Shown piece by piece: positions 5,385 through 40,347 of a stretch of 64,000 bases of DNA. How positions within the stretch are numbered: the stretch's first letter is position 1; the number at the start of each line of letters is the position of its first letter. Both the position numbers and the translations under genes were made by a program. The DNA is from SAR202 cluster bacterium (lineage in GTDB: Bacteria; Chloroflexota; Dehalococcoidia; Lucifugimonadales; UBA3495), in NCBI GenBank assembly GCA_016872385.1, contig VGZV01000006.1, forward strand, positions 768 through 64,767, read 5' to 3'. The notes under the pieces were generated by a model. It was not told the DNA's origin and searched no databases. It saw only the letters and a list, made by a program, of their open reading frames with translations.

Positions 5385-5494
5385 CGAGAGTTGGATGAAA
5401 ATCGTATTCTCCCAGCGAAATCATTACTTTTGGAACAAGGCCCACAAGGGGGAGCATGATTCTCTGTTAGCGGTAGTTTATCCTGGCCGCTGTT

Positions 5495-6769
5495 TCACCC
5501 CGAAGGGGCAAGGTCGTACATGGACTCGCCCAGCCGCACCCTGCCCGGTTGGTCCAGCAGGGCGCGGGCAATCCTGGCCCGGTGCTCAAAGCTGGTGCCC
5601 ATGCGCATAGTCCAGGAGGACACCCGCCGGAACCACAGGTTCAGGTTAAACTCAGCCATGAACCCTATGCCGCCGTGGATTACCTGGGAGGAGCGCACCA
5701 CTGCCTCGCACTTGTCGTTGGCGAAGGCCTTGGCCTGGGATATCTCGATACTGGCGGGCAGCCCCTGGTCCATACGCCACAGGGCTTCGTAGGTCAGCAG
5801 CTGGACACCGTCTACCCAAACAATCATGTCGGCGCACAGGTGCTGGATGGACTGGAAGGCCCCAATGGGCCGCCCAAAGGCCACCCGGTTCTTGGCGTAG
5901 TCAATGCCCATCTCCGCATCCTTGCGGGTGGCGCCCAGCATCTGGGCGCACAGGAGGATGGTGCCCCGGTCCAGCATTCCTTCAATCACCGGCCAGCCCT
6001 GGTGCAGCCTTCCTACCAGGCTGGAGGCGGGGACAGCTACACGGTCAAAAGTCACCCGGCTCTGCTTGTCTTTGACCATGGTGCCCAGGGGCGTGTGGGA
6101 AATGCCAGGCAGGTTAGTATCCACCAAGAAAAGGGATAGGCCAGCTTCACTCCCCTGGGCTGAAATCCCCCCAACCCCCCTTTGCAAAGGGGGGCTAGAC
6201 AGTCCCCCCCTTTCGTAAAGGGGGGTCACGGGGGATTTGTCTCCACTGACAGGCGCAGTGCGGCAAGCCACCAGGAATTTCTGGGCGGCGTTGAAGTTGT
6301 CCACAAACATTTTAGTGCCGGAAATGACGTAGCCGTTGCCCTGGGGCGTGGCCTGGGCGTGCACCGTTTCAGGCAGCAAGCGCGGGTCAGTTTCCAGCAG
6401 TGCCCAGGTAAGGACCATGTCTCCCCTGGCCACCGCGGGCAGCACCTCTTTCTTCTGCTGCTCGCTGCCGTCTTTGGCAATGGTCAGAGCCGCCATCATG
6501 GTGCTGTGGAAGGGCACGGGGGCAATGGCCCGGCCCAGCTCTTCAAAAATCAGGCCCAGGTAGGCCAGAGGCAGGCCCTGGCCGCCATAGGCTTCCGGCA
6601 AGGCCAGGCCCAGCCAGCCCAAATCAGCCAGCTTCTTCCACAGCGCCGGGGGATAACCCAGGTCGTCGGCCTCCATAGCCCGGGCCATTTCCGGGGGGCA
6701 TTCCTTTTCCAGGAACTCCCGGGCCAGGTTTTTGAGCATTTGCTCTTCTTCGTTAAGCAGTACGTCCAT
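5495..6769 (-). CDS. Acyl-CoA dehydrogenase carrying an in-frame repeat-derived loop insertion
   Basis: ACAD-like throughout. Preferred start is the ATG at 6769 (MDVLLNEEEQ); the longer ORF to 6835 runs into a GC-hairpin repeat. About 30 extra residues lie between CRT and GLSLFLV compared with the neighbouring ACAD. Confidence 0.85.
   Translation of the reverse strand: MDVLLNEEEQMLKNLAREFLEKECPPEMARAMEADDLGYPPALWKKLADLGWLGLALPEAYGGQGLPLAYLGLIFEELGRAIAPVPFHSTMMAALTIAKDGSEQQKKEVLPAVARGDMVLTWALLETDPRLLPETVHAQATPQGNGYVISGTKMFVDNFNAAQKFLVACRTAPVSGDKSPVTPLYERGGLSSPPLQRGVGGISAQGSEAGLSLFLVDTNLPGISHTPLGTMVKDKQSRVTFDRVAVPASSLVGRLHQGWPVIEGMLDRGTILLCAQMLGATRKDAEMGIDYAKNRVAFGRPIGAFQSIQHLCADMIVWVDGVQLLTYEALWRMDQGLPASIEISQAKAFANDKCEAVVRSSQVIHGGIGFMAEFNLNLWFRRVSSWTMRMGTSFEHRARIARALLDQPGRVRLGESMYDLAPSG
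6163..6238. repeat. GC-hairpin repeat family B, embedded in frame in the ACAD coding sequence
   Basis: AAATCCCCC...GGGGGATTT terminal inverted repeat enclosing hairpins CCCCCCTTTGCAAAGGGGGG and CCCCCCCTTTCGTAAAGGGGGG. Translates as KSPVTPLYERGGLSSPPLQRGVGGI. Confidence 0.8.
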
Positions 6770-6874
6770 GACCGTCCAAGAACCCCCATCCTGACCTTCC
6801 CCCTTGGCAATGGGGAAGGAATAAGTCTCTCCCACTTAACCGGGGGATATTTAGAAGGGGCAGCTTGCGAGTTT

Positions 6875-8077
6875 CTAGCTCCTGGGCATGCCCAGGCCCC
6901 GGCGGGCTACCTGGTCCCGCATGACCTGTACGCTGCCGTGGTTGATGCCCGACTGGAAGGCTCCCAGAACGTTGTGGGCGAAGATGCCGTCTTCAATAGC
7001 TTCCGGCGAGCCGTTCATCAGTTGGGCATAAGGCCCCAACACCTGGGTGATGGTCTCGGTGGTGCGGACGCCATGCTCCGGGCTGAACACTTTTTCTGCG
7101 GAGCCTTCATAGGTGAACTTGCCGCCGTGCTCCACCAGCGACATGGAACGCAAGGTCATCAGGCGGCAGACCTGGGCCTCAATCCAGAGTTCCGCCAGCC
7201 TGTCCCGCACTGCCGGGTCCTGGGCCGGGGTGAACCCTTGAAAGTCGTTTTCTTTGACCCAGTTGATGATGTCCTCGTCACGGCTTACCGAGAGCAGGTA
7301 GCGGCTGGCCCCCACCCGGTCCAGGTTAAGGCCCATAGCCCCCACATACCACCCCATGTTCTCCTCGCCCAAAATGCAGGAGGCGGGGACGTGCACGTCT
7401 TCCAGGAACACCTCGTTGGTGCGGGCCTGTCCGTAAGTGGTGCCCAGAGGCGCAGTGGGGTTGCTCTGGATGGTCCACAGGGGGCGGACCGTGATGCCGG
7501 GAGTGTCCATGGGAATCAGGAAAATAGAGATTCCCTTGTGCTTGGGAGCTTCGGGATCAGTGCGGGCCATCAGATAAAGGTGGGTGGCGAAGTGGGCCGA
7601 GGAGGTGAACATCTTCTGGCCGTTGACCACGTACTCGTCGCCGTCCCGCACTGCCCGGCACTGGAGGCTGGCCAGGTCCGCGCCCGCCTGCGGCTCGGTG
7701 AAGCCCAGGCCAAACACAATCTCGCCCCGGATGATGCGGGGCAGGAAGTACTGCTTTTGCTCCTCGGTGCCCGCGGCCAGAATGGCCGGAGCGCCGCTGC
7801 CTGCGCCGCCCACGCCAATGCCTACGCGGGCGAACTCCTCTTCCACCAGGTACTGGTCAATGCGGCTGCCGCCCTGGCCGCCGTACTCCTTGGGCCAGCT
7901 GATGCCCACCCAGCCCCGGTCGGCGATTTTCTTCAGCAGCTCCCGGGTCCGAGGCCCGCGGCCTTCCTCCCACCCTTTGGCAGCTTCCGCCAGCACCTCA
8001 GGAGACACGTTCTCTGCAATGAACTGACGGACTTCTTGTTTGAGGGCTTCCTGCCGGGGCGTAAATCCAAAGTCCAT
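6875..8077 (-). CDS. Acyl-CoA dehydrogenase
   Basis: 400-aa ORF, ACAD-like over full length (GFTEPQAGADLASL, ARTDPEAPKHKGISIFLIP, C-terminal helical domain). Confidence 0.85.
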   Translation of the reverse strand: MDFGFTPRQEALKQEVRQFIAENVSPEVLAEAAKGWEEGRGPRTRELLKKIADRGWVGISWPKEYGGQGGSRIDQYLVEEEFARVGIGVGGAGSGAPAILAAGTEEQKQYFLPRIIRGEIVFGLGFTEPQAGADLASLQCRAVRDGDEYVVNGQKMFTSSAHFATHLYLMARTDPEAPKHKGISIFLIPMDTPGITVRPLWTIQSNPTAPLGTTYGQARTNEVFLEDVHVPASCILGEENMGWYVGAMGLNLDRVGASRYLLSVSRDEDIINWVKENDFQGFTPAQDPAVRDRLAELWIEAQVCRLMTLRSMSLVEHGGKFTYEGSAEKVFSPEHGVRTTETITQVLGPYAQLMNGSPEAIEDGIFAHNVLGAFQSGINHGSVQVMRDQVARRGLGMPRS

Positions 8078-25789: not shown

Positions 25790-28700
25790 ATGGGATGGTT
25801 TGCAAACCTGCCGCTGGTGGTCACCCAAATAATCCGCCAGCGGCGGGTTTTTGTTTCTCCGGCAACCTGGCTGCTGCTGGCGATCCTGGCAGCAGCCCTG
25901 GCCCTGCGGCTGTACGGGATTAACTGGGACCAGGGCTACGGCTTCCACCCCGACGAGCGCTCCATCTACATGCGAGCCGGCTGCATGTACGACCTGCTGG
26001 TACAGGCGCCTGGCTACCAGGAGTGTCTGCGGGACCATCCCCAGACCCAGCCGGGCTTCCCCAGCCTGGGCGTGTTCCTGGACCCCCAGCGCAGCCCCCT
26101 TAACCCTCACTGGTTCCCCCTGGGCAGCATCCTGATTTACGCCCTGGTGTACCTGCGCTCTATCCTGGAGCTGTTCACCAACCTTTCCGCCCTGGACATG
26201 CGCTACGCCGGAAGGCTGTTGTCCGCCCTGGCGGACGTTGGCAGCGTTTATCTGGTTTTTTTGCTGGGGAAGCGCATGTATGGACAAGGCACGGGCCTGC
26301 TGGCCGCCGCCTTCGCCGCCTTTGCCGTCATCCACATCCAGAACAGCCACTTCTACCGGCCCGAGACTTTCTCGGTGTTTTTTACCCTGGCGGCTTTCCT
26401 GGCAATGCTGCGGATGATCCAGTACGGGCGCTGGCGGGACTCGGCAATACTGGGCTTGCTGGTGGGACTGGCCCTGGCCCCCAAAGTGAACGTGCTGCCT
26501 TTGCTGCTGCCCCTGGCGCTGGTCTATGGGTGGCGGTGGTATGACCTGGCGCGGCAAAAATCCCCCAAACCACCCTTTGAGAAAGGGGGGCTACAAAGAC
26601 CTTCACCGCGCTGGGGCCAGTCTTTTTCGCCCCTTATTAAGAAGGGGTTAGGGAGGATTGCCAGCGCCCAGCTTCTGGCCGGTCAAGCCGCCCTGGCCGC
26701 CGTAGTTGCCCTGGCAACCTTCTTTGCCGCCAGCCCTTATGCGCTGCTGGACTTTAAATCTTTTGTGGCGGACCAGATAGCCCAGGCCAACATGGCAAAC
26801 CATGCTGGCCTTTGGCCCTTCACCATCCAGTACGTTGGCACTACGCCCTTCCTGTACCAGATGCGTCAGAGCATAACCTGGGGGCTGGGCGTGCCGCTGG
26901 GACTGGCCGCCTGGGCCAGCATCCCCTTTACAGCAGCGATGGCCTTTCTGCAAAAGCAGACCTGCCGGGCCGACTGGCTGCTGCTGGCGTGGATACTCCC
27001 CAGCCTGCTGCTGCTGGAGAGCTTTGAAGTACGGTTCCTGCGCTACCTGTTCCCGCTGATACCCTTTATGCTGCTCTTGGCGGCACGGATGCTGGTGTGG
27101 CTGGCCGTAGCCGCCACGCAACGACTAGATGACGCTGGAAAAGCTCAGTTGCCCTCCGCCTCACCGGAAGAGGGCCAGGGCGAGGGCCGTCAACCCCCCC
27201 CTTTGCCCCCCTTTTTCAAAGGGGGGTTGGTGGGATTTGCGCCACGGAAACTCCTGGCCTGGACGCCGACGCTGCTCATCGCCCTGGTGATGCTGGGCAC
27301 GGTTTTTTACGCCCTGGCCTTTATGCGCATCTACGCCAGGCCTCATCCGGCAATAGCCGCTTCCCAATGGCTCCGGGAAAACGTGCCCGCCGGGAAGGCA
27401 ATAGCCAGCGACAACCACTGGGACGAGTTCATCCCAGGGTTGTACCAGTACCAGGTCTGGCAGTATCCCGCATACGACGCGGATTCCGCCGAGAAGATGA
27501 CCACCCTGGCGCGCCAGCTAGCAAAGTCGGAGTACCTGGTTTTCTACAGCCAACGGCCCTTCGCCAGCGTCAGCCGCGACCCCCAGCGGTTCCCCCTGAG
27601 CGGACATTATTACCAGCAGCTTTTTGCCGGAAAATTAGGCTACCAACTAGAAAAGAAGTTCATATCGTACCCGGAGTTGCTGGGCGTGGCCTTTCAGGAC
27701 GACCCTTATACCTGGTCAGGGCTGCCCAAACCCAGCCCAGCCCAGCCGGAACCAGGGTCGCTGCTGGCCCTGAACCTGGGCTACGCCGACGACAACGTGG
27801 TGGGCTACGATCACCCCCAAGTGCTGGTGTTCCGGAACACGGAGCGGCTGTCCGAATTATCGCTGCGGGCCCGCCTGACACCCTCGCGCCAAAGCCCAGA
27901 CTCCGGAACTGACCAGGGGCTGATGCTTTCTCCAGAACAGGCGGCGGCCCAGCGCAACGGCGGCGCCTGGTCAGAGATTGTCCACCGGGACTCGTGGACC
28001 AACAAACTGCCGGTACTGGCGTGGCTGCTGGCGGTGGAGGTCATCTACATGGCCAGCCTGCCCCTGGCCATGTTCCTGTGCCGGCCCCTGCCTGACCGGG
28101 GGATAGTCCTGGCCCGCATCCTGGGCCTGCTGGCAGTTTGTTACGTGGCCTGGCTGCTGGCCAGCCTGGGCTGGGTCCAGTTCTCCCGCACGGGCATCTG
28201 GTTAGGGATTCTGACAGTGGCAGCCCTGTCCGCCGTCGCACTAGCCGCTCACTGGCAGGAAATCCGCCAATTCCTGAAGGCCCGCTGGCGGTTGCTGCTT
28301 TTGGGTGAAGCTTTGTTCCTGGCCGCCTTCCTGGCCTTTGTCTTGCTGCGGGCGGCCAACCCCGACCTGTGGCACCCCTACCGCGGCGGCGAAAAACCTA
28401 TGGAACTGGCTTACCTGAATGCAGTGGCGCGCTCCAGCCTGATGCCCCCCTACGATCCCTGGTTCGCCGGGGGCTACCTGAATTACTACTACTGGGGCTA
28501 CTTCGTGGTGGCGGCGCTGGTGCGAATCACCGGCATAATACCCACCACGGCATTCAACCTGGCAGTCCCCCTGTTTTTTGCCCTGACCTTCACCGGGGCC
28601 TTTTCTCTGGTTTATAACCTGGCGGCGGCGACAATCCCCTCTCCAGCAATAAGGAGAAGGGGAAATGGAACAACAATTTCAACGGAGCAAGGCTTGAACG

Positions 28701-30538
28701 AATCCGCTCGTCCTGAGCCTGTTGAAGGACGAGTCACAAGTCCGCTCATGGTTCGACAAGCTCACCATGAGCGGTGGAGGCTGTTCAGTTCCGTCTTGGG
28801 AAGACCCAGTTCCTGGCCGCCGGTTACCGCCGGGCTGCTGGGAGGGCTCATGGTAGCGGTCATGGGCAACCTGGACGGGGTAGTGCAACTGGCCCAGGGC
28901 GCATGGCGAAAGCTGGTCCTGGGGCAGCCCTTCCCAGCCTTTGATTTCTGGCGCAGCAGCCGCATGGTGCCGGACCTGCCTGCGTTTGACCCATCGCCCC
29001 TGGCCTTCTGGATGCCAGGCCACGCCCCAGGCGCGGCGGAGGTATCGCCCCACATCACCGAGTTCCCCTACTTCACTTTTCTGTTTGCCGACCTGCACGC
29101 CCACATGATGGTCATCCCCTTCACCCTGCTGGCGCTGGGCCTAGCCCTAACCCTGGTACTGGGGCTGCGGCAGGCTAAAAGCTGGTGGGCCATGTCCGCC
29201 ACCGGCGTCCTGGGGCTGGCGCTGGGATCGCTGTGGGTAATCAACAGCTGGGACTACCCGGCCTACTTGCTCCTGATGGCGGCGCTGCTGGGACTGGCGG
29301 CGTGGGCCGCGCCCGGCGGGGCGGTGTTCCGCGCGGGATTGTGGCTGGCCATGTGGGCCGCAGTGGTTGCAGTAAGCGTACTGGCCTTCTGGCCCTTCCG
29401 CCAGGCCTACCAGACCTTTGACCCCGGCCTGGCTCCATCCCTTTGGCGGACGCCGCCTGAGCGGTATTTCGCCATTCATGGGGTGTTCCTGCTGGTGGCG
29501 ATAGTGCATCTGGTCCAGCAGTGGCGTGATGCACGCCACTCCCCAACTCCCCCTTTGCAGAGCGGGATCAAAATTGTTCTCCCCTTTAGTAAAGGGGGGC
29601 TGGGGGGATTTCTAATTCTGGCCCTGGGAGCGTTGGCGGCAGTCTATCTGGCGGCGGCGGGCTACTGGACGGCAGCCACGCTGACACTGGTGCTGGCCTT
29701 CACCATCAGCGCCGCCGGAAGGGAGTTGAAGCGCGACGCCCAAAGTGGGCCATGCTTGCCAACGGTAGCCTCCCTGGTCCTGCTGGGCATGGCCCTGTCC
29801 ATTGGCATTGGCCTGGACCTGGCGCGGCTAAACGGGGACATTGGGCGCATGAACACCTTCTTCAAATACTACCTGGAAGCCTGGGTGCTGTTTGGCGTAG
29901 CTAGCGCATACCTTCTGTGGCGTCTGGGAGCAACAGGATTTTTCCGCCAGGGGTTGGCAGGCAAAGCAACTTTGGGTATTATGTTATTGTTTTTAGTGGG
30001 CAGCTTGATTTACCCGGCGCTGGGCGCCCGCGCCCGGTTGGCTGACCGTTTCAACCCAACCGCGTTGACGCTGGACGGCACGGCCTATATGCGCCAAGCC
30101 GTTCATATGGAAGAAGGGCAGCCTATCGCCCTGGAGTACGACCTGGAGGCCATACACTGGCTCCAGGACAACGTTCAAGGGTCGCCAGTGGTGCTGGAAG
30201 CCCACCACGAGCAGTACCACTGGAGCAGCCGGATCTCTGTCTATACCGGCCTGCCGACAGTGCTAGGATGGCCGTGGCACCAGATTCAGCAGCGGGGCGA
30301 CAGCACTGCTGTTTACCGCCGGGCGGCAGATGTGCGGGAAATTTACAGCACTGTGTCGGTGGAGCGGGCCCAGGCATTGTTGCAACAGCACCAGGTGCGG
30401 TACATAGTGGTGGGCGAACTGGAGAGGGCTTACTACCCTGCGCCTGGTCTGACCAAATTCGAAAGTATGACGCGCCAGGGGTTGATTACCCTGGTGTACC
30501 AGAATCCAAGAGTGCAAGTTTACCGCACGCCCTGGTAG
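25790..30538 (+). CDS. Giant polytopic membrane protein: N-terminal GT-C/ArnT-like region plus DUF2298 / Chlor_Arch_YYY domain
   Basis: 1582-aa ORF with dozens of TM segments and the hallmark FAGGYLNYYYWGYF (YYY) motif. Contains four in-frame repeat-derived segments. Confidence 0.8.
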   Translation: MGWFANLPLVVTQIIRQRRVFVSPATWLLLAILAAALALRLYGINWDQGYGFHPDERSIYMRAGCMYDLLVQAPGYQECLRDHPQTQPGFPSLGVFLDPQRSPLNPHWFPLGSILIYALVYLRSILELFTNLSALDMRYAGRLLSALADVGSVYLVFLLGKRMYGQGTGLLAAAFAAFAVIHIQNSHFYRPETFSVFFTLAAFLAMLRMIQYGRWRDSAILGLLVGLALAPKVNVLPLLLPLALVYGWRWYDLARQKSPKPPFEKGGLQRPSPRWGQSFSPLIKKGLGRIASAQLLAGQAALAAVVALATFFAASPYALLDFKSFVADQIAQANMANHAGLWPFTIQYVGTTPFLYQMRQSITWGLGVPLGLAAWASIPFTAAMAFLQKQTCRADWLLLAWILPSLLLLESFEVRFLRYLFPLIPFMLLLAARMLVWLAVAATQRLDDAGKAQLPSASPEEGQGEGRQPPPLPPFFKGGLVGFAPRKLLAWTPTLLIALVMLGTVFYALAFMRIYARPHPAIAASQWLRENVPAGKAIASDNHWDEFIPGLYQYQVWQYPAYDADSAEKMTTLARQLAKSEYLVFYSQRPFASVSRDPQRFPLSGHYYQQLFAGKLGYQLEKKFISYPELLGVAFQDDPYTWSGLPKPSPAQPEPGSLLALNLGYADDNVVGYDHPQVLVFRNTERLSELSLRARLTPSRQSPDSGTDQGLMLSPEQAAAQRNGGAWSEIVHRDSWTNKLPVLAWLLAVEVIYMASLPLAMFLCRPLPDRGIVLARILGLLAVCYVAWLLASLGWVQFSRTGIWLGILTVAALSAVALAAHWQEIRQFLKARWRLLLLGEALFLAAFLAFVLLRAANPDLWHPYRGGEKPMELAYLNAVARSSLMPPYDPWFAGGYLNYYYWGYFVVAALVRITGIIPTTAFNLAVPLFFALTFTGAFSLVYNLAAATIPSPAIRRRGNGTTISTEQGLNESARPEPVEGRVTSPLMVRQAHHERWRLFSSVLGRPSSWPPVTAGLLGGLMVAVMGNLDGVVQLAQGAWRKLVLGQPFPAFDFWRSSRMVPDLPAFDPSPLAFWMPGHAPGAAEVSPHITEFPYFTFLFADLHAHMMVIPFTLLALGLALTLVLGLRQAKSWWAMSATGVLGLALGSLWVINSWDYPAYLLLMAALLGLAAWAAPGGAVFRAGLWLAMWAAVVAVSVLAFWPFRQAYQTFDPGLAPSLWRTPPERYFAIHGVFLLVAIVHLVQQWRDARHSPTPPLQSGIKIVLPFSKGGLGGFLILALGALAAVYLAAAGYWTAATLTLVLAFTISAAGRELKRDAQSGPCLPTVASLVLLGMALSIGIGLDLARLNGDIGRMNTFFKYYLEAWVLFGVASAYLLWRLGATGFFRQGLAGKATLGIMLLFLVGSLIYPALGARARLADRFNPTALTLDGTAYMRQAVHMEEGQPIALEYDLEAIHWLQDNVQGSPVVLEAHHEQYHWSSRISVYTGLPTVLGWPWHQIQQRGDSTAVYRRAADVREIYSTVSVERAQALLQQHQVRYIVVGELERAYYPAPGLTKFESMTRQGLITLVYQNPRVQVYRTPW
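26558..26659. repeat. Family B GC-hairpin repeat in frame within the DUF2298 CDS
   Basis: AAATCCCCC...GGGAGGATT ends, hairpin CACCCTTTGAGAAAGGGGGG. Translates as KSPKPPFEKGGLQRPSP...PLIKKGLGRI. Confidence 0.7.
27192..27238. repeat. Family B GC-hairpin repeat (half element) in frame within the DUF2298 CDS
   Basis: CCCCCCTTTTTCAAAGGGGGG followed by GGTGGGATTT. Translates as PPPLPPFFKGGLVGF. Confidence 0.65.
28704..28775. repeat. Family C palindromic repeat in frame within the DUF2298 CDS
   Basis: CTCGTCCTGAGCCTGTTGAAGGACGAG and CCGCTCATGGTTCGACAAGCTCACCATGAGCGG hairpins. Translates as SARPEPVEGRVTSPLMVRQAHHERW. Confidence 0.75.
29541..29611. repeat. Family B GC-hairpin repeat in frame within the DUF2298 CDS
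   Basis: CTCCCCTTTAGTAAAGGGGGG followed by GGGGGGATTT. Translates as SPTPPLQSGIKIVLPFSKGGLGGF. Confidence 0.7.
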
Positions 30539-40202: not shown

Positions 40203-40347
40203 AAATCCCCCCAGTCCCCCCTTTGGCAAAGGGGGGAAATAGAAACCCGTCCACTCCACAAGGGGGGGGACTTTGCCAGTCTCCCCATGCACAAAGGGGA
40301 GAGCCTATCCAATCCCCCCTTTCGCAAAGGGGAGTGAGGGGGGATTT
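40203..40347. repeat. Tandem family B GC-hairpin repeats between cbiC and the conserved part of cbiX
   Basis: AAATCCCCCC...GGGGGGATTT ends enclosing CCCCCCTTTGGCAAAGGGGGG, CTCCCCATGCACAAAGGGGAG and CCCCCCTTTCGCAAAGGGGAG. Confidence 0.75.

Follow-up and report, generated by a model that had tools for sequence, protein, structure and literature searches.

In a 64,000-nt stretch of the genome of a SAR202 cluster bacterium (assembly GCA_016872385.1, contig VGZV01000006.1, positions 768 to 64,767; hereafter the window), a 76-nt palindromic element lies at positions 6163 to 6238, inside an open reading frame (ORF) for a protein of the acyl-CoA dehydrogenase (ACAD) family. This locus raises the question of how a gene can carry a hairpin repeat within its codons, and whether the segment is an insertion, is read through, and serves the host. 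The evidence below makes it probable that a dispersed hairpin repeat has inserted into codons for an ACAD loop and is read through, and that it is selfish or neutral and has not been co-opted. The features of the locus, in window coordinates, are these:

5495 to 6769, minus strand: host gene, acyl-CoA dehydrogenase family protein P0001, 424 amino acids (ORF, Pfam, family alignment, Foldseek)
6163 to 6238, minus strand: repeat-family member in its two-hairpin form, 76 nt (hairpin pattern, RNA fold, two nhmmer matches with E = 1e-9 and 3e-5)
6163 to 6172, no strand: outer arm or tag, AAATCCCCCC, pairing with 6230 to 6238
6175 to 6194, no strand: inner hairpin 1, CCCCCCTTT-GC-AAAGGGGGG (hairpin pattern)
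6204 to 6225, no strand: inner hairpin 2, CCCCCCCTTT-CGT-AAAGGGGGG (hairpin pattern)
6230 to 6238, no strand: outer arm or tag, GGGGGATTT, partner of 6163 to 6172
6149 to 6162, minus strand: 14 extra nt adjoining the element, part of the codons S-AQGS (orthologue alignment)

An insertion in an acyl-CoA dehydrogenase gene

The element had been proposed from the letters of the window (the sequence-only reading), and its sequence, hairpin pattern and predicted fold all bear the proposal out. It is a nested palindrome with ends AAATCCCCC/GGGGGATTT and two CCCCCCTTTnnAAAGGGGGG hairpins, its letters running AAATCCCCCC-AA-CCCCCCTTTGCAAAGGGGGG-CTAGACAGT-CCCCCCCTTTCGTAAAGGGGGG-TCAC-GGGGGATTT; in the orientation of the gene, the right half is the canonical ...CCCCCCTTTGCAAAGGGGGGTTGGGGGGATTT, and the terminal inverted repeats of the two-hairpin form measure ~33 nt. 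The hairpin pattern was matched eight times in the window and not once in 100 shuffles, and the RNA fold of the element region gave -57.3 kcal/mol (z = -4.1). Intrinsic-terminator scoring did not flag the element at 6163 to 6238. The proposed in-frame read-through agrees with an intact ORF of 424 amino acids (5495 to 6769), in which the element is read as KSPVTPLYERGGLSSPPLQRGVGGI; the tryptic peptides expected from an insert-carrying protein are SPVTPLYER, GGLSSPPLQR and GVGGISAQGSEAGLSLFLVDTNLPGISHTPLGTMVK.

A search of 40 relatives returned one clear ACAD orthologue in almost all genomes belonging to the same taxonomic family. The orthologue matches split into residues 1-176 and ~206-423 of P0001, and both pieces are directly adjacent in DNA. 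When 18 orthologues, including that of the same-genus species G001, were aligned, all of them lacked the segment, leaving a 30-residue gap between ..CRTAPxSxxxx and G(I/L)SLxLVD; the partial orthologue of a second same-genus species, G002, splits at the same point, and the PDB homologues of P0001 also break there. The 119 best homologues among 5.8 billion proteins, whose source labels are Dehalococcoidia or Chloroflexota, are 388-405 amino acids long, compared to 424 for P0001, and all of them are short of ~30 residues at this place. These comparisons confirm that the 6163 to 6238 segment of the ACAD gene is an insertion. The net length difference from the orthologues is 90 nt (30 codons), not the 76 nt first proposed, and is made up of the 76-nt element and the 14 nt at 6149 to 6162, for which a lineage-specific loop, filler and a decayed duplication are the candidate sources. 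A net change of 90 nt leaves the reading frame intact. Two candidate target-site duplications at the ACAD site were rejected from alignments judged by eye: an 8-nt one, CAGKGGAG, would break the frame, and an 18-nt one matches at 10 of 18 positions. An empty ACAD allele was sought in JGI metagenomes and none was found there.

The source genome is a metagenome bin of 111 contigs, and repeats often act as break points, circumstances in which an apparent insertion could be a repeat-made assembly chimera. However, the exact P0001 protein occurs on five contigs, and an independently assembled 70-kb contig (ENA ERZ27247963, k141_100474) carries an identical ACAD gene with the same junctions and only 1 mismatch in 7275 nt; the frame and the order of both gene halves would also be unlikely to survive such a joining. 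The insertion is not an assembly artefact, and a chimera is extremely improbable.

The host protein and the insert loop

The AlphaFold2 model of P0001 has a mean predicted local distance difference test score (pLDDT) of 76 and matches known ACAD structures in Foldseek at template modelling (TM) scores of 0.88-0.91. Residues 177-206 fall below a pLDDT of 50, while the flanking strands 164-170 and 211-217 exceed 90, and the model thus presents the insert as a disordered loop joining two beta strands of the ACAD middle domain that are predicted with confidence. The middle beta domain of the ACAD fold is known to face outwards in the tetramer. The loop would then be exposed, which is supported by its variation in length and by independent hairpin inserts in two orthologues. 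The same loop measures 6-17 residues in homologues; orthologue P0010 carries in it a 45-nt unit of the same repeat family, GAATCCCCCCTGACTCCCCTTTCGCAAAGGGGGGAAGGTGGGATTT, and orthologue P0004 carries a different hairpin beside the native CAGGGGATTTC. These two orthologues come from loci L167 (GCA_964457285.1, gene 501-1697), which encodes P0010, and L169 (JGI 3300045950). The ends of the P0010 unit coincide with the native GAATCC (Glu-Ser) and GGGATTTC (Gly-Ile-Ser) codons, which hints, as a lead only, that insertion or replacement may be guided by likeness to the element termini. In essence, the sequence-only reading of an insertion into a surface loop is supported, with the orthologues and the modelled disorder in agreement, and its figure for the size of the insertion has to be enlarged as given above.

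We also considered whether the ACAD gene could be a young pseudogene, inactivated by the insertion, in which stop codons are yet to come. P0001 matches the N-terminal and C-terminal ACAD domains of Pfam, but its middle domain reaches 31.8 bits against a cut-off of 33.3, and RMGTS stands in place of the YEG motif with its canonical catalytic Glu; both points would suit a gene in decay. The middle domain scores below the cut-off because the insert splits it, and the Glu replacement is common to all orthologues of P0001 and is therefore a family trait. In addition, the frame is intact over 424 codons, P0001 retains 130 of the 130 invariant columns in a family alignment of 52 sequences, and the ratio of nonsynonymous to synonymous substitution (dN/dS) against a same-genus orthologue is 0.15 for the part preceding the insert and 0.18 for the part that follows. 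Essential genes such as that for ValRS hold similar inserts. On these sequence comparisons the ACAD host gene looks alive, and the pseudogene explanation is quite unlikely.

The gene next to the insert-carrying one provides a further comparison:

6875 to 8077, minus strand: adjacent ACAD paralogue with the YEG motif and the short loop DPEAPKHK (ORF, Pfam, PDB homologues)

As had been read from the sequence, this paralogue has eight residues (DPEAPKHK) where P0001 has the insert. The two genes likely encode an alpha2beta2 ACAD pair. The best PDB sequence match of the insert-carrying ACAD is Tcur3481 of the Tcur3481-Tcur3483 steroid ACAD (6wy8), and ChsE4-ChsE5 (4x28) is a further match. The spacer between the two genes (6785 to 6850) is filled by a second repeat family, ACCCCCATCCTG..CCTTCCCCCTTGnnAAGGGGGAAGG.., which is abundant in the genome and which adds 22 spurious codons (MGETYSFPIAKGEGQDGGSW..) to the upstream end of the ORF.

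The repeat family in this genome and beyond

The canonical unit of the family is 45 nt long, AAATCCCCCCTGGCCCCCCTTTGCAAAGGGGGGTTGGGGGGATTT, and a TGG/TT asymmetry confers orientation on it. A profile search of the 2.70-Mb genome (nhmmer, E < 1e-3) gave 105 matches, which reduce to 92 loci. Gene calls came from a codon log-odds caller of our own, which gave 2332 genes covering 84% of bases. Against these calls, 40 loci fall between genes, 12 run over the end of a gene, 22 are at ORF margins, where they are probably outside the true gene, and 18 are well inside 15 ORFs. All 18 intragenic loci are in frame with a positive coding score on both sides, and the presence of in-frame copies in genuine genes is in favour of the sequence-only reading. 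Pfam confirms 12 of the 15 host genes, namely those for the ACAD, a DUF2298/PMT_2 protein, RecG, a FAD_binding_4 oxidase, an amidohydrolase, MutS2, TrpF, a CoxM-like flavoprotein, a CitMHS transporter, an AMP-binding ligase, ValRS, and a CoxL/xanthine-dehydrogenase-type molybdopterin subunit with two copies. The further family copies expected in the window were found in place, three in frame in the DUF2298 gene (25790 to 30535, which matches PF10060 DUF2298) and one upstream of a gene. These copies, followed by four further hosts in the genome, are as follows:

26558 to 26592, plus strand: copy in the DUF2298/PMT_2 gene, read as KSPKPPFEKGGL, missing from five orthologues
27197 to 27238, plus strand: copy in the DUF2298 gene, read as PPLPPFFKGGLVGF, in frame in a variable linker
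29579 to 29611, plus strand: copy inside the DUF2298 domain, read as LPFSKGGLGGF, missing from five orthologues
40203 to 40347, no strand: two-hairpin copy with a longer spacer, 145 nt, lying upstream of a gene, with a negative coding score on the 5' side
C37:15040-18066, strand not given: ValRS host of an in-frame unit
C13:31766-34486, strand not given: MutS2 host of an in-frame unit
C2:75921-78491, strand not given: RecG host of an in-frame unit
C18:4340-5233, strand not given: TrpF host of an in-frame unit

Presence and absence of copies differ among close species, and for this reason we regard the family as mobile. The family insert in ValRS is missing from the orthologues of G001, G007 and G015, and one molybdopterin-subunit insert is missing from both same-genus species. 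The other molybdopterin-subunit insert is common to the source genome and G002, with the same right boundary, and is missing from G001. No clean target-site duplication was found at the ValRS or molybdopterin-subunit sites in comparison with diverged orthologues. The linker at 27197 to 27238 also looks repeat-derived in the two same-genus species, as judged from their protein sequence. Relative to the host gene, the intragenic copies are split 8 versus 10 in orientation (a tally from strands), with no bias. The share of loci that are intragenic is ~20%, compared to ~84% coding DNA, and insertions in genes are therefore selected against, yet far from excluded. In practical terms, inserts of this kind drop domain models below threshold, as with the ACAD middle domain, and they inflate ORFs and seed spurious 'PPLxKGG' database proteins; they also point to loops in which 15-30 additional residues are tolerated.

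Several other repeats were observed. ValRS holds a second repeat-derived insert (IPPTPLSQRGAMGDV), likewise missing from the three orthologues, and residues ~950-1005 of the DUF2298 gene form a fourth variable region that comes from yet another repeat (..ARPEPVEGRVTSPLMVRQAHHER..), at which the G001 orthologue has a PPSAPLCKGGRRGIS-type sequence resembling the family unit at the level of protein sequence. Composites of 215 nt at C44:21028-21242 and C57:2010-2226 have an inverted-repeat element (CCTTGTTTCAAAAGT...ACATTTGGAACAAGG) nested between unit halves, and a fragment of this nested element lies just downstream of the ACAD gene (5400 to 5460 of the window).

Outside the source genome, 12 of 24 genera from the same family show the left-half pattern; 16 other families of the order were sampled, and it was absent from all of these. 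The core CCCCCCTTTn(2-3)AAAGGGGGGn(2-3)GGGGGGATTT is present on at least 120 contigs, whose labels, among the matches listed, include Desulfobacterota, Nitrospirota, Methylomirabilota, Beta-, Gamma- and Alphaproteobacteria, Binatia, Acidobacteriota, Planctomycetota, Deinococcota and Bacillota; isolates among these matches are Chromatium okenii, Thiorhodococcus, Thiothrix, Iodobacter, Lysobacter, Luteimonas and Geomesophilobacter. Single genomes can be rich in pattern matches: C. okenii has 159, Lysobacter Root916 has 126, Luteimonas R10 has 80 and Iodobacter arcticus has 60. In distant genomes as in the source genome, units stand singly or as head-to-head or tail-to-tail pairs. Eight long ORFs elsewhere hold an in-frame unit that is either flanked on both sides by Pfam domains or located within a matched domain: two radical-SAM proteins (Nitrospirae and Methylomirabilis), RlpA, Tex, a hybrid histidine kinase and GlnRS of C. 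okenii, a solute-binding protein and an FGE-sulfatase domain protein. Strain LaCa of C. okenii has 3-4 in-frame units between the catalytic and anticodon-binding domains of GlnRS and several units in the last linker of the hybrid histidine kinase (LaCa loci L147 803-2665 and L060 5791-7998).

The unit is also found on 92 IMG/VR predicted viral contigs (L175-L266), many of them Mu-like phages whose genes include portal, Mu F, Gam and GemA. Phage units are in frame at differing positions of homologous portal proteins and also in a GemA-like protein. Overall, in-frame units were seen in genes of Nitrospirota, Methylomirabilota, Beta- and Gammaproteobacteria and in portal proteins of Mu-like phages. 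The repeat family is not lineage-specific, being present in many phyla and on phage contigs, and phages are a possible vehicle of the unit between phyla.

Tolerance, movement and relation to known repeats

The basic unit consists of the tag AAATCCCCCC, 2-3 nt and a C6T3...A3G6 hairpin, and two facing units make up the 76-nt element, which, as we picture it, inserted into the codons of a surface loop in the ACAD middle (beta) domain. The mRNA would be read through, and the protein would gain ~30 Pro/Gly-rich residues as a flexible loop, leaving the rest of the enzyme fold untouched; translation of the insert as a floppy surface loop is what we infer to be most likely. The element itself is probably selfish or neutral, with no recruitment for function; selection would retain only those copies whose net length is a multiple of three and which lie in loops or linkers. 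The unit consensus is free of stop codons in all six frames and always reads ..PP..(K/R/Q)GG.., for example KSPLAPLCKGGLGGF, NPPNPPLQRGARGD and IPPGPPLQRGVGGI, because C runs encode Pro and G runs encode Gly and both are present on each strand. With Pro-Pro and Gly-Gly in all six frames of a stop-free consensus, the encoded peptide would always be turn-forming and hydrophilic, a property that accounts reasonably well for the tolerance. What mainly filters coding copies appears to be whether the net length is a multiple of three and whether the copy has landed in a loop. A "designed" stop-freeness of the family was rejected, with copies barely more open than random windows.

The 90-nt length, as a multiple of three, would leave the frame intact after excision as well, and the segment could accordingly be imagined to be removed by RNA excision or protein splicing, giving a mature protein without the insert. 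Known inteins are far longer than 30 residues, and the Pro/Gly-rich insert is far below their size. No Rfam family match was obtained in seven unit-carrying loci of other genomes, a scan that did not include the window itself. Removal also fails to explain why the frame is kept and stop codons are avoided in 18 of 18 intragenic copies, and the established view for the Rickettsia palindromic elements is read-through (PMC10969869). Removal of the segment before the protein matures is very unlikely.

Several points weigh against a neutral, read-through insertion of a mobile repeat. There is no clean target-site duplication at the ACAD insert, and only 76 of the 90 inserted nt are recognisable as element. 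Individual copies have 4.1-5.3 of six frames open, compared to 4.2 in random windows; copies are thus barely more open than chance, and the six open frames are therefore a property of the consensus and no strong statistical signal. A hairpin of -57 kcal/mol within the mRNA might influence expression. No mobilising gene was found, so that mobility rests on presence and absence between species, and, like translation of the insert, the neutrality of the element and its mode of movement are what we infer.

Influence on expression leads to the question of co-option, in which the mRNA hairpin would tune translation or stability in the ACAD operon, or the Pro/Gly loop would have gained a function such as partner contact. 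The hairpins are almost perfect and very stable, as a retained function would lead one to expect, but near-perfect hairpins equally fit a recent insertion. One molybdopterin-subunit insert is common to two species with its hairpin preserved, whereas the ACAD insert is missing from both same-genus species and from all other orthologues. Copies are located in 15 unrelated genes and in both orientations, the ACAD loop is predicted to be disordered, and the element has no terminator score. Taken together, co-option is unlikely, and a selfish or neutral repeat is the reading that we prefer.

Candidates for a gene that moves the element were examined. The RAYT/Y1 transposase (REP-associated tyrosine transposase, PF01797; REP, repetitive extragenic palindromic) was rejected as mobiliser, with no correlation to element load among 41 relatives: PF01797 was not found in the element-rich relatives G001, G002, G004 and G020, nor in C. 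okenii despite its 159 units, and in four distant genomes no unit lies within 1.5 kb of any of 10 Y1 loci. A partner gene beside the unit was likewise rejected: when the ORFs within 3 kb were clustered all against all, no family was shared by more than 8 of 120 loci in other genomes, and on viral contigs the recurrent genes are merely those of Mu-like phages. A longer autonomous parent element in the source genome was discarded as well, as the flanks shared between copies extend only ~35 nt.

The sequence-only reading had named the Rickettsia palindromic elements (RPEs) as the established case of in-frame tolerance, and had known of none for the present family. In-frame palindromic repeats are indeed established in Rickettsia RPEs (Ogata et al. 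2000/2002, reviewed in PMC10969869), and a literature search by sequence words and organism returned no description of this repeat family; the point to be amended is that in-frame copies are also documented for GTAG/CGTC REPs (PMC3733652). As with RPEs, the present family consists of dispersed palindromes, many of them in frame in unrelated housekeeping genes, probably read through and at sites that the fold tolerates, and the insert is missing from orthologues and lies in a loop. It differs in that its host belongs to another phylum, in its length of 45-76 nt rather than ~100-150 bp, in being based on GC runs, and in occurring in many phyla and on phage contigs rather than in a single genus. 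Host, length and composition thus set the family apart, and we do not file it as an RPE. Palindromic repeats that are probably read through extend beyond Rickettsia to at least 15 genes of a free-living Chloroflexota bacterium.

Intragenic GTAG/CGTC REPs have been described in Opitutus, Thauera and Thioalkalivibrio (Di Nocera, De Gregorio, Rocco 2013, PMC3733652) and altogether in several phyla, including copies in uvrA and uvrB. With these REPs the family shares a short hairpin with a tag at one end, an organization in single units and head-to-head or tail-to-tail dimers, and a minority of copies inside genes, where they encode 10-30 residues; like the CGTC REPs, it has no dedicated transposase. 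In contrast, its tag is AAATCCCCCC, its stem is built of homopolymer runs, and no Y1/RAYT association was found; all copies carry AAATCCCCCC / GGGGGGATTT in place of the GTAG/CGTC tag. [quoted passage not shown] They resemble the two-hairpin form in its ~33-nt terminal inverted repeats, in being non-coding on their own and in their in-frame fusions, but no clean target-site duplication and no parent insertion sequence were found for the present family, and its 45-nt form is below the usual MITE size. We regard the element as a new member of this general kind that belongs to no named family, as its tag is not that of the REPs and as no RAYT association, clean duplication or parent element was found for it. 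It may conceivably represent a third, undescribed superfamily of tagged hairpins (tag AAATCCCCCC with C6T3/A3G6), spread over well above 10 phylum-level groups and Mu-like phages, moved by an enzyme other than a RAYT, with homopolymers that suit coding sequence unusually well and targets that may be selected for resemblance to its own ends; this proposal is tentative, and we hold it to be doubtful as a whole.

GTAG REPs are themselves present in the source genome, where they flank its one RAYT-like ORF. This ORF of 150 amino acids (L155 1438-1890, corresponding to C13:34416-34868, minus strand) gives a weak PF01797 match and has an HVHGIL motif and an NFYEH motif. Its 3' end overlaps a GTAG-tagged REP (GTAGGGGTGACGTATGCGTCGCCCCTAC), and the ORF holds an in-frame GTAG REP that is read as VEATHTSPLQ.

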